Assembly: GCA_964442475.1 (NCBI GenBank) | Contig: CAYTZJ010000001.1 | Location: 1-60,072, forward strand | Length of the DNA: 60,072 nucleotides | Direction: 5' to 3' | Origin: an uncultured Candidatus Saccharibacteria bacterium | GTDB lineage: Bacteria > Patescibacteriota > Minisyncoccia > Phycocordibacterales > DATGWK01 | Shown: piece after piece, positions 10,523 through 60,072 of the stretch | How positions within the stretch are numbered: the first letter of the stretch is position 1 | Layout: the number at the start of each line of letters is the position of its first letter | The notes under the pieces: generated by a model | Database searches by the model: none | What the model saw: the letters and a program-made list of their open reading frames with translations, nothing else | Told to the model about the DNA's origin: nothing | Made by a program: the position numbers and the translations under genes

Positions 10523-13500
10523 ATGAAAACTCCACTATTTTTTTCTTTGAAGCAAAATCTTGGCACAAGACTTTTTGTGCTTATTGTTCTTGTATCTATT
10601 GTCATTCCTCAGACTTACACACTTTCAATTCCATTGGCATTTGCTGATGATGAGACACAAAACACAGAGTCAAGTAACACAGGTGCTAATGTTGAAAGAG
10701 AAACTGAAAGTTCAACTGATGAAGCAGCAAATAATTCCCGTGTTAACAATGCAACGGATAATATTGAAAAAGACGTTATTGATACAAACTCATCAGTTGG
10801 TTCCATCGATCATTCTTCAATCGAAATAGTTAATATTTCTAATAATGAAAGCATTAACGATATTTCTACGATTCCTGTCACATCAGTAAATGTGAATCCA
10901 ACTCTAGACATCAATAATTCTTCTGAAGATAATGCGAACAATTCTGGAAACACTACACACAACACATCAACAAACAACAACGATTCATCACACGAAACCG
11001 AAGATATTCAGCCGGAAGTAGCGGGGGCAAACAGCCTAACCACTACCCCTCAGACGGGCTCAATTACCGTATGTAATGTAATTGCAAAAGCTGATGGACA
11101 AATAGTCTCTTCACCAGCGGGTCTTCCGAATGCCGCTTTTTCATTAAATCTTCGAACACGAATCGGCACAGGAACCCCAATTCAAACCTCTCCTTCAATT
11201 CAAGAGTTTGATTTCTACTCTCATTTATTTACACAAACAACCCCTTCGCCAATTCCTGTGAGTGCACAGTGTATAAAATACAAAAACTTTGAGCTCAGAC
11301 AATACATCTACTCTCCGGTTACAGTAACATCTGAAATCAGCAATAGATGGGAAACACCGAAATACAACGATCAATTCATTACTTCTGTGAATTCGGTTAA
11401 TAGTTTCTACCCGTACAGCCAAGAAATGTTTGATAATAATCAAGCAAATGACGGACAAAGAAACGAAGATGCTGACGGCATCATCACTCTTACAGCCAAT
11501 CGACCAAACCGAGTTTTGGTTATTCTAAACAAACTCAAACCAGTCACACCACAAACAGGTTCAATTACTGTTTGTAATATGATTATTACTAAGAATGGTC
11601 AAATTGCCACGAGCTCTGCGGGTCTACCAGCTGGACAATTTAATATCAACTTTTACCCACTATCGAGTCCACAAACCCCTGTTCAAAACTCAGCCTTTAA
11701 CACTGCCACGTTTAATCCAGCAATACCTTCAGTTTCTGGACTTGCCGCAGAATGTAAGAAATATGAGCACCTACCACTCCAAGCGTATGTGTATACTCAA
11801 GAAACTATTACCGGTGCATCAGATGAAACATGGCAAACACCAAAATATAACGACGGGTACATATTACCTCCAAACCAACTTAATAACTACTTCCTATACA
11901 GCCCAGAATCCTTCGATAACGATCCCTCAAATGACGCTCTAAAAAACGAGGACTCCGACGGTATTATTACCCTAAACGTTAACCGACCAGACCGAGTGTT
12001 GGTTGTAATGAATAAACATAATTTGGTCGGGGGTGAACCGCCACCAGCCTGTGCAAACGGCATAGAATTATCTGTCACAGAGTTTGGTACAGCCGTATCA
12101 CAGGGTCGAATTACTTACTCACCTATTGTTGTTGATGCAGGAACCACAACCGCGACCTTTACGATACATAACAATACAGGTTGTACAGCACCCGTTACCC
12201 TAACGAGTTACAAAATGTTTGATCCGCCACCCGTTCTTTCGACTCAGGTGCTCTTTGATCGAGCAGGCGTAATTCAAGCAACATCAACCACAATCCTAAA
12301 AGTAAGAATTCCTAACTGTGCTGCTCAAATTGACGCATGGTTTGGAATGGCACCAGAATTCTTAGTTGATTCAAATCCATATTCCTACCCCTCTGTTCCA
12401 CATGTTCTAAACGCGTTACTTGTTCGACAAGACCAATCATGTAATACAAATCCAGTTAATACCCCACCCACAATTACCCTTATTGGAAGTAACCCTCTTA
12501 GCATTACCAAAGATTCAATCTTTACTGACCCTGGAGCAACAGCAACAGATGTTCAAGATGGAAACCTCACAGCTTCTATCGTGGCAACAGGTACCGTCAA
12601 TACAAGCGTGGTTGGTACATACACTCGCACTTATACCGTTACCGATTCTGGTGGTCTTTCTGCTTCAACAACTCGAACAGTCAACGTTACAAGTGGTGGT
12701 GGTCCAACAAATAACCCACCAACAATCACAGTTCTCGGTGATAACCCAATGATTGTTTATATTCACACAACTTTTACTGACCCTGGAGCAACAGCAACGG
12801 ATCCAGAAGACGGTAATCTCACAAGCCAAATCGTTACAACCGGCTCTGTGGACACCAACACTCTTGGTAGTTACACAATCACCTACACCGTTACAGACTC
12901 TAAGGGTGTTTCGGTTTCAGCTAATCGTACTGTAAATATTATAGAAAACACAGACAACAATGGTGGAGGCGGAGGTGGAGGTGGTAGTCGTCGCAAAAGT
13001 TCTGGAGGCAGAGTTCTCGGTGTAGAGACCGGTCCTACTGCGTGTTTTTATCTAAACGACTATCTCCGACGTGATCTCAATAATGATCAAGGTGAAGTAT
13101 TGAAACTTCAATTGTTTCTAAAGTATTTTGAAAATGAAGGCAACCTCATTGCAACCGGTAACTTTGACCAAGCTACCTTCGATGCCGTATCACGATTCCA
13201 AACAAAGTATTCAAGTGACATATTAAGTCCATGGGGCTATAACGCACCAACTGGTTATGTTTATATTCTGACAAAAAAGAAAGTAAACGAAATATTCTGT
13301 AAAACAGCGTTTCCAATAAACGCACAACAGCAAGAGGAGATTAATAACTTCAAATCCCTCATTCAGGGCCTTCATGATCGTGGTTTAACTGTTCCCACAG
13401 ACGGTACAATGATGATTGATGATCATGTAATAGATGTAAAGGACACAGTTGGTCTGGCAACATCTACCAATCCAGAAAATCCAAATTCGGAAATGGTTGT

Positions 13501-56830: not shown

Positions 56831-56858
56831 AGAAAAAGGCGGTCTTTCATAGACCGCC
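56831..56858 (-). terminator. Intrinsic terminator overlapping the stop codon of 56847..57776
   Basis: Minus strand reads GGCGGTCT atgaa AGACCGCC followed by TTTTTCT. Confidence 0.7.
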
Positions 56859-57776
56859 ACGCTGACTACCTTGAGGTAACCTGACCACCAGCACACCATT
56901 TCGCGTTTGATCTCCACGCCGACAGCTGTGCCAGACACGTTCTCCAAACTCATCAACCTCAGTCGCAGTGTCAGTAGGGTCAACAGAGAAATGTTCAGAG
57001 TCTGTTGGCACACCAGACCTTTCCAGTTGAACCTTCACCACTGCAGCAAGGTCAATGGGACATTGATCGTATGGTTTGCCCACTACCTGCGGGCCAAATT
57101 CCTCTACGAGATGCCTCGCCAACTCCACATTCTTCTCACCATAATCCGGATGATTAGAAGGATGAGTAAACGACGGAGCCTTAATGCCACAAAGCATCGC
57201 CACCTCAACACTATCTGTCCGACCGAACCAGCCCTGAAGCGACGCGACCACCACACTTTGGTAAGTAAGATGATGTGTTGCCCGAACCTCAGCCGGTTCA
57301 ATCAAACTGTTTCGCCCCCCATGACACCCAACTACGAGTCCATTTGGCATGCGAAACACCAGAGTGTAGCAGTCGGCAGAGGGCAGAAAGTACGCTCCGG
57401 GCTCGGTGAGGCGAACACCGTCACCATCACCGCCAAAATGGAACTCGACTCCATCAACAACAATACGATCTCGGTAGAGATCGGGATCGTCGTTGATCAC
57501 TGTGCCGACAGTTCTTTCACGAATGACCGCATCCCCTTTGAGATTTGAGAGATTGGGGTCCTCGAATGCAAGGGGTGTAAACACCCGCGTCACGCCGCAC
57601 TGCTTTGCGTAGCGTGCAAGAACCATAAACAGATAGGACTTATTCTCCGACTGCATATGATTCCAGTCATGAGGCCTGCCGAAAGCAAACACGCGAACGG
57701 TTTTCCTAAACAAATCGAATTGTCGTGTTGGAAGTATCCGCTCAGAGGCGGAGCTTCCGAGAACCTGTTCAGCCAC
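56847..57776 (-). CDS. Diverged DUF152 / PgeF (YfiH, laccase-domain) family-like protein, G+C-rich
   Basis: PSADCYTLVF...GCHGGRNS resembles the ADC-P...HAGWRG core, and HSCRRG...TRNG resembles the C-terminal SYRR...GR motif. Start set to GTG 57776, 6 nt after the perfect SD AAAGGAGGTG (plus strand 57781-57790). Confidence 0.4.
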   Translation of the reverse strand: MAEQVLGSSASERILPTRQFDLFRKTVRVFAFGRPHDWNHMQSENKSYLFMVLARYAKQCGVTRVFTPLAFEDPNLSNLKGDAVIRERTVGTVINDDPDLYRDRIVVDGVEFHFGGDGDGVRLTEPGAYFLPSADCYTLVFRMPNGLVVGCHGGRNSLIEPAEVRATHHLTYQSVVVASLQGWFGRTDSVEVAMLCGIKAPSFTHPSNHPDYGEKNVELARHLVEEFGPQVVGKPYDQCPIDLAAVVKVQLERSGVPTDSEHFSVDPTDTATEVDEFGERVWHSCRRGDQTRNGVLVVRLPQGSQRGGL

Positions 57777-57883
57777 AAAGCACCTCCTTTGAGTGGTTAC
57801 GATAAAGACCAAAAAACACCGACATAAACGTACTACTTAAAAAACTCTTGGTCAACAGCTGTAAAAATGAAGTAACGACCTGC

Positions 57884-57957
57884 GTGGGCGTACCAGGAGT
57901 TGAACCTGGGACCTCGTCATTATCAGTGACGCGCTCTAACCACCTGAGCTATACGCC
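57884..57957 (-). tRNA. tRNA-Ile (anticodon GAT)
   Basis: Reverse complement GGGCGTA TA GCTC AGGTGGTTA GAGC G CGTCA CTGATAA TGACG AGGTC CCAGG TTCAACT CCTGG TACGCCC A. Confidence 0.9.
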
Positions 57958-58151
57958 CACGCAAACAACAACTTCATTTTTACAAGAACCGAGCGAACCA
58001 TTTATATCGTAATCGATATCAGTGACGCGCTCTAACCACCTGAGCTATACGCCCACGCAAACAACAACTTCATTTTTACAAGAACCGAGCGAACCATTTA
58101 TATCGTAATCGATATCAGTGACACGCTCTAACCACAACAACTATACGCCCG
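57920..58151. repeat. 96-bp tandem repeat (2.4 copies) made of the tRNA-Ile 5' half plus a 57-nt leader
   Basis: 57921-58016 is repeated at 58017-58112. A third, diverged 39-nt copy of the tRNA 5' half sits at 58113-58151. Confidence 0.95.
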
Positions 58152-58260
58152 CAACGTCCTTTCTGGCGAAACCTTAAATTATCAGAAAATGTGCCTTTAA
58201 ACAAGACTGTGCCGGCAACAAAAAACCACGAGCTCCGCCAGTGGTCTTCATCAGAACATA

Positions 58261-58698
58261 TTAACTCTTGAGCTCTTTCTTCACTTTCGTCCAGTACTTC
58301 TCCGTACTAGACTTTTTCCAACCGTTGGGTCCACCGTTCCAAATCCTTGCTCGATCTTCATCCGTTGGCTCTCGACCCAAACGTTTCTTGGTCGCGTAAA
58401 GCCCAATGTAGCATTCGAAGATCTTGATCGAAAGACTTCGGTCGTTCTGGCAGTCCTCGGCACGATAGTTTGTGCCGAGGGCTCTGTTCACATCGTCAAC
58501 ACAAGGTTGGCGAATCTGAAGACAGCCGTAGGCTTTATTCTTCAAATTCGTATCGCCGACGACTGAGTCATCTCCTCCAGATTCCACCTGGATGAGGGCT
58601 TCAACAAGACTTGCCGAGGGCTCGCTTGCTGAAACCTGTGCACCTAGACAAACAAAAGTAAGAAAGCTGAAAAGAACAATCCATTTTTTCGAAAACAT
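58261..58698 (-). CDS. Secreted lysozyme-like / lytic transglycosylase (SLT-like) protein, G+C-rich
   Basis: Signal peptide; catalytic-type motif QVESGGD followed by AYGCLQIR; AAGGA 7 nt upstream of the ATG. Confidence 0.55.
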   Translation of the reverse strand: MFSKKWIVLFSFLTFVCLGAQVSASEPSASLVEALIQVESGGDDSVVGDTNLKNKAYGCLQIRQPCVDDVNRALGTNYRAEDCQNDRSLSIKIFECYIGLYATKKRLGREPTDEDRARIWNGGPNGWKKSSTEKYWTKVKKELKS

Positions 58699-59585: not shown

Positions 59586-60072
59586 ATTTGAAATATTCCA
59601 CGAGCAGCTTCCGCTACCCGTGCCTTGTTACGACTTACTCCCTGTCACCGAGCTTACCTTAGGACCGCGCGAGGCGATACTTCGGGTACTCCCGGCTCCC
59701 TTGAGTTGACGGGCGGTGAGTACAAGACTTGAGAACGTATTCACCGCAGTATAGCTGACCTGCGATTACTAGCAATTCCGGCTTCATGGGGTCGAGTTGC
59801 AGCCCCCAATCCGAACTGGCGCATCTTTTATTACGATTAGCTCAGGGTTACCCCGTCGCGGCGCGTTGTAGATGCGATTGTATTATGTGTGTAGCCCCGG
59901 ATATCAGAGGGTCATGCTGACCTGGCGTTATCCTCGCCTTCCTCCCAGCTCAGAGACTGCAATTTTTAAAAATTGTAATCTTTGAGCTGGGCAGTCTCGC
60001 CTGATACATGTAACAGACAACGAGGGTTGCGTTCGTTACCCCACTTAAGGGAACAATTCAAACCACGAACTG
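59586..60072 (-). rRNA. rrs: 16S rRNA, 3' ~480 nt (continues beyond window)
   Basis: Reverse complement contains AAGTCGTAACAAGG (1492 region), TTGTACTCACCGCCCGTCA (1392 region), GCTACACAC, AACGAACGCAACCC, and helix 45 with a GGAA loop. Confidence 0.9.

Follow-up and report, generated by a model that had tools for sequence, protein, structure and literature searches.

The window analyzed here, 60,072 bp in length, is the whole of contig C1 of a 628-kb metagenome-assembled genome (MAG) of 55 contigs, G000, from an ultrasmall CPR/Parcubacteria bacterium. A 16S rRNA gene, represented by its 3′ part (59586-60072, minus strand), is cut off by the contig end, and from there the minus strand carries, in order, a G+C-rich stretch with a doubtful open reading frame (ORF), a secreted lysozyme-like gene (58261-58698; weak Destabilase/SLT matches), a promoter-like site, half copies of a tRNA gene, an intact tRNA-Ile gene, a 321-amino-acid ORF, and murD and murC. 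G+C content is ~50% in the final 3.3 kb of the contig versus 39% in the genome. The tRNA-Ile(GAU/GAT) gene, called by both ARAGORN and Rfam (72 bits), lies at 57884 or 57885 to 57958 on the minus strand, does not encode CCA, and matches at 100% identity in eight relatives, of which seven belong to the same genus and one (G008) to a second genus. Only tRNA or 16S families of Rfam matched, with nothing for the leader, trailer, or inserts described below.

The upstream lysozyme-like gene ends in a hairpin and T-run (58220-58246, minus strand; conserved in G004 and G005), and thus the tRNA unit appears to have its own start. A predicted promoter-like site lies at 58176-58204 (minus strand), 5′ of the oldest half copy, with TTGTTT at 58199-58204, 17 nt of spacing, and the extended -10 sequence TGATAATTT at 58176-58184; it is conserved in relatives and was not called in a strict consensus promoter scan. 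A candidate second promoter within the repeat unit (TATAAAT) was rejected because it has no acceptable -35 box and the consensus scan did not rise above shuffle expectation. Accessory genes in the interval from 16S through tRNA-Ile to murD differ by lineage (window positions 58261-58698 and 56847-57812; L028:1301-1795; L031:4392-7288; L021:428-1036) and include i-type lysozyme-like, PgeF/Cu-oxidase_4-like, and Amidase_2 genes, a restriction-modification (R-M) system, and a group II intron domain with a LAGLIDADG ORF.

Tandem 5′ half copies of tRNA-Ile

Next to the intact gene, TRF detected a period-96 array of 2.4 copies at 57921-58150. The first unit (57921-58016, minus strand) comprises nucleotides 1 to 37 of the tRNA itself (57921-57958) and a 58-nt leader, x (57959-58016); the second (58017-58112, minus strand) comprises a 5′ pseudo-half (58017-58054) and a second leader (58055-58112), and a repeat search found the two units to be 100% identical. 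Beyond them lies an older, diverged 5′ pseudo-half of 38 nt (58113-58150, minus strand; 87% identity), whose five mismatches fall in the D arm (four) and the anticodon stem (one). On the tRNA strand, every copy terminates in ...CACTGATA, i.e., at nucleotide 37, and is followed by T rather than by the A38 of the gene. A sequence-only reading of the window had described a 96-bp tandem duplication with copies that stop after nucleotide 37, as well as a third, diverged 5′ half, and both descriptions hold. None of the other G000 tRNAs has a 5′ half copy.

The same reading had expected that a sibling genome would preserve the unduplicated state, and G004, a member of the same genus, does so: it aligns across the whole locus minus exactly one 96-nt unit (95 gapped columns). 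The one 5′ half that G004 has, much decayed, aligns with 58113-58150 of the window and shares TTGTTGTG with it; the degenerate copy of G005 is likewise orthologous to this pseudo-half. From the missing unit and the alignment of the old half, we conclude that the ancestral state was old pseudo-half, leader, and tRNA, in that order, and that the perfect repeat stems from a recent unequal crossover or slippage between the old pseudo-half and the true 5′ half. The junction at nucleotides 37/38 was not made by this event and was inherited from the old pseudo-half, which is common to other genera and families.

The array consists of perfect head-to-tail units, and the old pseudo-half and the true 5′ half at its bounds are preexisting direct repeats 96 nt apart with 10 identical terminal bases, GTCACTGATA. 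Comparison with G004 establishes the extra unit in the G000 assembly; for the mechanism we infer that an unequal crossover or replication slip at GTCACTGATA would have added one perfect 96-nt unit recently. It is very unlikely that this unit is an artefact of a short-read metagenome bin and that the true genome holds a single G004-like unit or some other copy number. Perfect tandem repeats are easily miscounted, the MAG is fragmented, and the locus sits 2 kb from a contig end inside 16S; however, the contig is continuous through the array, k-mers longer than 96 can by our reasoning resolve a two-unit array with distinct flanks, and similar secondary tandem units occur in the independent assemblies G001, L032, and L034.

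A leader/trailer helix around the tRNA

The intact gene is bracketed by an exact 14-bp inverted repeat, of which the leader arm (TGTAAAAATGAAGT on the tRNA strand) lies at 57971-57984 and the trailer arm (ACTTCATTTTTACA on the tRNA strand) at 57860-57873, both on the minus strand. This repeat had been noticed in the sequence-only reading, correctly as to its exactness and with coordinates that were one base low. An identical second leader arm recurs at 58067-58080 in the duplicate unit. By our estimate, a perfect 14-mer inverted repeat has a chance expectation of ~0.003 in 1.3 kb. A further 12-bp inverted repeat (57881-57892/57952-57963) lengthens the acceptor stem by 5 bp, and G-U pairs carry the helix into this extended stem. 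Two other features of the leader are repeated with the unit. A small hairpin, ATATCG-ATTA-CGATAT (58004-58019, minus strand; second copy at 58100-58115), begins at A35 of the pseudo-half and is retained in relatives with other stem sequences. The conserved motif GGTTCGCTCGG (57989-57999, minus strand; second copy at 58085-58095) lies in relatives opposite the trailer motif CTCGCT.GCC over an internal loop; this trailer partner has been lost in G000.

Among the 31 G000 tRNAs tested, tRNA-Ile has the strongest flank complementarity and none of the others is comparable. Across the lineages that carry the nested arrangement described below, the duplex energy of each leader with its own trailer ranges from -28 to -57 kcal/mol versus cross-lineage means of -14 to -18 kcal/mol; good cross-pairing is confined to close relatives, and lineages without half copies have no such helix. 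Constrained folds gave the same layout of helix, internal loop, and helix in 11 lineages with unrelated arm sequences. Between G000 and G004, matches number 74/74 in the tRNA, 27/27 in the leader arm, 25/27 in the trailer, 24/28 in the hairpin and motif, and 22/38 in the pseudo-half. Mismatches on the tRNA strand are of the G-U type in 40 cases versus 17 of the A-C type, a modest excess that lends modest support to selection at the RNA level; the lineages are not independent. Judged from these sequence comparisons, the helix is maintained by compensatory changes.

Bacterial rRNA precursors have leader-trailer processing stems that are RNase III substrates. G000 encodes an RNase III (C13:12168-12893; Ribonucleas_3_3 at 3.8e-40, with a dsrm domain), and the earlier comparison of the 14-bp stem with rRNA-operon processing stems is reasonable for that reason. 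From the duplex energies, the shared fold, the conservation between G000 and G004, the flank complementarity, and the presence of RNase III, we take the 14-bp repeat for the central part of a helix that would clamp the precursor and provide a double-stranded site for processing. The suggestion of a stem bracketing the tRNA is supported and extended to a longer helix kept by compensatory change in relatives. The helix of x with its complementary trailer, x′, is probably an RNase III-type processing clamp: it would pair in the precursor RNA, keep the genuine tRNA ends side by side in the presence of the decoy 5′ halves, and offer a double-stranded site for a predicted RNase III-type cleavage. 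As in rRNA processing stems, long-range complementarity brackets a mature RNA, the setting is an rRNA operon (3′ of 16S), compensatory change is seen, and RNase III is encoded; unlike those stems, the tRNA-Ile helix brackets one tRNA and runs straight into its acceptor stem, and its cleavage is proposed from sequence. In the minimum-energy fold of the G000 transcript (57852-58180, minus strand), the trailer and the 3′ acceptor strand pair with the upstream duplicate unit. Thermodynamics alone thus does not let the clamp tell two identical units apart, and the new copy is a perfect decoy that could compete with correct folding of the tRNA.

Nested tRNA-Ile genes in related genomes

We compared the loci of relatives with the tRNA by BLAST and ran one pattern scan each of GTDB genomes and JGI metagenomes; the scans demanded a junction at nucleotide 37, which places the frequency of other junctions outside their reach. 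BLAST revealed 5′ pseudo-halves that end at nucleotide 37/38 in G007 and in G008, a member of a different genus, and 3′ pseudo-halves that start at nucleotide 35/36 in G001, G006, and G007. The scans returned 18 loci, of which L022 is a chance match in a coding region and L017 is complex and rearranged; the others, some of them near-duplicates, share one architecture and carry the labels Yonathbacteria, Zambryskiibacteria, Nomurabacteria, and Vogelbacteria or come from unnamed lineages. At least 12 related Parcubacteria loci have the complete arrangement, in which an outer 5′ half (to nucleotide 37) and an outer 3′ half (from nucleotide 35) flank an intact tRNA-Ile with its long leader/trailer helix. 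The 5′ pseudo-halves that end in ...CACTGATA|T occur in G007, G008, Yonathbacteria, Nomurabacteria, Vogelbacteria, Zambryskiibacteria, and metagenome loci, and 3′ pseudo-halves that start at A35 beside the same intact tRNA occur in G007, L018, L019, L021, L026, L028, L029, L030, L032, and L034.

Read on the tRNA strand, the 5′ part of the module runs from the outer 5′ half (nucleotides 1 to 37) through T and a hairpin of the form ATATNN..NNATAT, a short base helix, the motif TTCG(C/T)TCGG, and a variable leader arm to TGCGT. The intact tRNA-Ile follows, and then ACGCA, the complementary trailer arm, the motif CTC(G/A)CT.GCC, the base helix, and the outer 3′ half, which starts with ATAA at nucleotide 35. 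Some genomes keep only the left side (G000, G004, and G008) or only the right side (G001 and G006), and others keep traces (G002, G003, and G005). What remains in G000 is the working tRNA with x and the orphan 5′ half before it and the proximal part of x′ after it; the 3′ half has been lost. The sequence-only account of the array and stem was in this respect incomplete: it overlooked the conserved tRNA-in-tRNA module of which the locus is most plausibly the left remnant.

The outer tRNA-Ile copy of the nested loci is decaying. In MFD, the outer 3′ acceptor strand, CACGCGC, stands opposite a 5′ strand, GCGCGAT, that it does not match; the halves of Vogelbacteria, G012, and G014 carry large loop insertions (in the D-loop in Vogelbacteria and G014); and several relatives have lost outer halves. 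Both outer halves are almost intact in Nomurabacteria-type loci, the inner tRNA is deleted down to 9 nt in Vogelbacteria, and extra module fragments are found in L032 and L034. We infer that the outer halves are nonfunctional relics. Their high identity to the working gene points to repeated re-duplication or gene conversion, of which the G000 unit is a live example. In the outer 3′ halves of L019, L026, L028, and L030, several lineages have ATAA(C/A)GCCGAGG in place of ATAATGACGAGG, either recurrently or from a different source allele. No publication that describes such nesting of tRNA genes in CPR bacteria came up in full-text literature searches.

Origin of the nested arrangement

With somewhat better than even confidence, we favor the reading that the G000 locus is the left-hand remnant of a tRNA-nested-in-tRNA module conserved in this Parcubacteria order, in which an insertion gave rise to the module, the paired flanks act as a processing clamp, and part of the whole was recently amplified. 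In an ancestor, a protein-less segment of ~190 nt would have come into the anticodon loop of a resident tRNA-Ile gene. This segment would have carried a complete tRNA-Ile with leader x in front and, behind it, a trailer x′ able to pair with x, and its arrival would have left an orphan 5′ half (nucleotides 1 to 37) upstream and an orphan 3′ half (from nucleotide 35) downstream. Secondary tandem amplification among the direct repeats so created would have followed, and re-duplication or conversion, as above, would have kept the orphan halves gene-like.

Three observations on the flanks bear on this reading. In eight lineages, the DNA beyond the outer halves shows no relation to x or x′; the outer halves keep the spacing from the promoter and from the downstream tRNA-Leu that is expected of a simple gene; and the start of the leader pairs with the end of the trailer up to both junctions. 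Given these observations, a single insertion fits better than two independent tandem duplications. Similarity of the outward flanks to x or x′ is confined to G000, G001, and L032, plus a faint trace in G008, and points to secondary tandem amplification in those genomes; the weak likeness to x in G008 also fits a plain tandem duplication. We found no enzyme, circular form, or empty site that would indicate insertion, and the module is single copy in G000 and hence gives no sign of present mobility.

An unlikely alternative dispenses with insertion. A tRNA gene with a preexisting leader/trailer stem would have undergone separate, purely local tandem duplications of the leader with the 5′ half and of the 3′ half with the trailer, with end points placed in the anticodon loop through microhomology (ATA, or in G000 the 8-nt CTGATAAT of the promoter -10 region and the anticodon loop). 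Clear tandem units of this kind are present in G000, G001, and L032, G000, G004, and G002 have CTGATAAT in the promoter as well as in the anticodon loop, and the G002 leader resembles a deletion between the two CTGATAAT sites. Yet most lineages have TGGTA-type -10 boxes, for which reason we rejected the 8-nt microhomology as a general cause. The eight lineages without x upstream of the outer 5′ half and without x′ downstream of the outer 3′ half likewise speak against local duplication, as does the simple-gene position of the outer halves, and two independent events would need end points that coincide exactly with the base of one helix.

We accord a similarly low probability to classical integrase scars, that is, islands or prophages that integrated at the tRNA-Ile anticodon loop, displaced halves of the gene, and were later almost wholly deleted, leaving fragments 58 to 100 nt from the gene. 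Such crossovers and 5′ fragments have precedent: anticodon-centered crossover is the commonest tDNA sublocation, and in Islander 2083 attP sites are of the anticodon type and 159 islands have fragments of the 5′ kind (PMC4383910). Other families have plain 3′ fragments that start at nucleotide C32 shortly downstream of the gene (G012, G039, G023, and IMG/VR contig L035), the G023 fragment is an allele different from the resident tRNA, the 16S-murD interval is gene-variable and G+C rich, and tRNA-Ser 3′-end fragments exist in G000. The locus itself resembles Islander-type tDNA fragments (PMC4383910) in that a same-orientation partial copy breaks at the anticodon-loop sublocation, with 5′ fragments upstream and 3′ fragments downstream of the tDNA.

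The suggestion in the sequence-only reading that nucleotides 37/38 mark an integrase crossover nevertheless found no support. In G000, the spacer between fragment and tDNA is 58 nt without an ORF and holds no island of ≥2 kb with an integrase; across loci, an integrase or island lies between fragment and gene in 0 of ~20, and the neighboring ORFs of 10 loci (lysozyme, amidase, R-M, and LAGLIDADG) include no integrase or other recombinase. The search of the genome for an integrase, proposed in that reading together with one for an element with a matching tRNA-Ile half, yielded by motif scan a single Xer-like recombinase on another contig (C20), and IMG/VR scans for a free viral element with a matching attP half returned no pseudo-half junction and no module motif on viral contigs. 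One module-motif match in IMG/VR (L043) was a chance match within a coding region, and L035, which matched a pattern for an intact anticodon arm, carries a plain 3′ fragment and no module. Deleted islands, moreover, would not leave leader/trailer complementarity up to both junctions in every lineage. Unlike Islander-type fragments, those described here lie 58 to 100 nt from the gene and lack both integrase and cargo; the gap is filled by a leader/trailer pair that is conserved and forms a hairpin, and the intact gene stands between both halves rather than being rebuilt from one.

[quoted passage not shown] In both systems, the target tRNA is split and not rebuilt, and the insert brings a same-isotype tRNA, as seen in relatives with both halves (G000 keeps the left half only). 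In the actinobacteriophage case, an entire phage is inserted, which encodes its integrase and has a common core of ~10 bp (PMC10865867); the insert described here is ~190 nt long, has no ORF, shares no more than ATA, and is borne on a long stalk of inverted repeats. A bolder extension of the insertion reading, which we put forward tentatively as possible but less likely than not, is that very small cassettes without protein genes form a class of their own in Patescibacteria. Each would consist of a tRNA on a hairpin stalk, would enter the cognate chromosomal tRNA gene at its anticodon loop and replace it from within, and would be recognized through its conserved end structures by a trans-acting recombinase or nuclease. 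The recognized features would be the small hairpin with ATAT, the helix at the base, and the internal loop formed by TTCGCTCGG and CTCGCT.GCC, and G000 would be a decayed nest in which the direct repeats are still being amplified.

Archaeal and eukaryal tRNA introns lie at 37/38, and Nanoarchaeum has split tRNA genes. The remaining alternative, that the outer halves are exons joined at the RNA level after removal of a 37/38 "intron" that holds the inner tRNA, or assembled in trans as in Nanoarchaeum, is scarcely credible: the junction is at the canonical position, the halves have flanking complementary sequence that forms a long helix extending the outer anticodon stem, and both halves are nearly intact in Nomurabacteria-type loci, but G000 has no 3′ half, the outer halves elsewhere are truncated, enlarged by insertions, mutually mismatched (MFD; D-loop insertions in Vogelbacteria and G014), or lost from several relatives, and there is no evident bulge-helix-bulge motif. 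The interruption between nucleotides 37 and 38 is thus not accompanied by two intact, compatible exons, and the appeal of the sequence-only reading to the canonical intron position fails for lack of a 3′ exon in G000 and because of the decay of the outer halves in relatives. The archaeal, eukaryal, and Nanoarchaeum cases differ from this bacterial one, in which the outer halves are dispensable and undergo decay and the working gene lies in the interrupting segment; bacteria are not known to have a splicing endonuclease.

If tRNA-Ile genes have indeed been nested in this way, an essential single-copy tRNA gene in streamlined CPR genomes has repeatedly been overwritten by a small, self-contained copy of itself, with the debris recombining on. 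This would be a new mode of tRNA gene turnover and may also amount to a minimal mobile element of a new type or to concerted evolution in a new form. For work on RNA processing in organisms whose tRNA maturation is largely unstudied, the conserved leader/trailer clamp and internal-loop motif offer concrete targets. Half-tRNA arrays may also mislead tRNA annotation, island finders, and assemblers.

Other tRNA fragments and inserts were observed during the survey. In G000, tRNA-Ser 3′-end fragments of 19 to 26 nt occur on contig C3 (34630-34648), ~150 nt from the parent tRNA-Ser(GCT), and on contig C32 (31-56), with the parent tRNA-Ser(GGA) on contig C43; both resemble attachment scars of the T-loop/3′-end type. 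About 78 nt downstream of tRNA-Ile in L039 (G023:C54), the fragment CTGATAATGACGAGGTC differs from the resident tRNA, which has the anticodon stem CATCA/TGATG; the fragment is for this reason an older or foreign allele, which suggests gene replacement. The predicted viral contig L035 (IMG/VR UViG_3300009285_008404; 12327-12675) carries tRNA-Lys, tRNA-Ile, a 3′ half copy of tRNA-Ile from nucleotide C32 located 23 nt downstream, and tRNA-Ala; these tRNAs adjoin a tape-measure-like ORF that, judged by eye, seems to contain Cys-rich/HNH and intein-like inserts. A conserved G+C-rich element, AAGGCCGGAGCGCGACGGCGCGAGGCGGGGTCGCG..., without an Rfam match is intergenic in G000 (contig C46:776-817; L040) and occurs also in the T-loop of the outer 3′ pseudo-half in Yonathbacteria (L018/L025), in the D-loop of the 5′ pseudo-half in G014 (L037:1342-1431), and as three 131-nt tandem copies in Vogelbacteria-like contigs (L031/L033). 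A second hairpin insert, CCCCGACG...CGTCGGGG, is present in the D-loop of 5′ pseudo-halves of two families (L013:1399-1455; L024:1892-1931; L031; L033).
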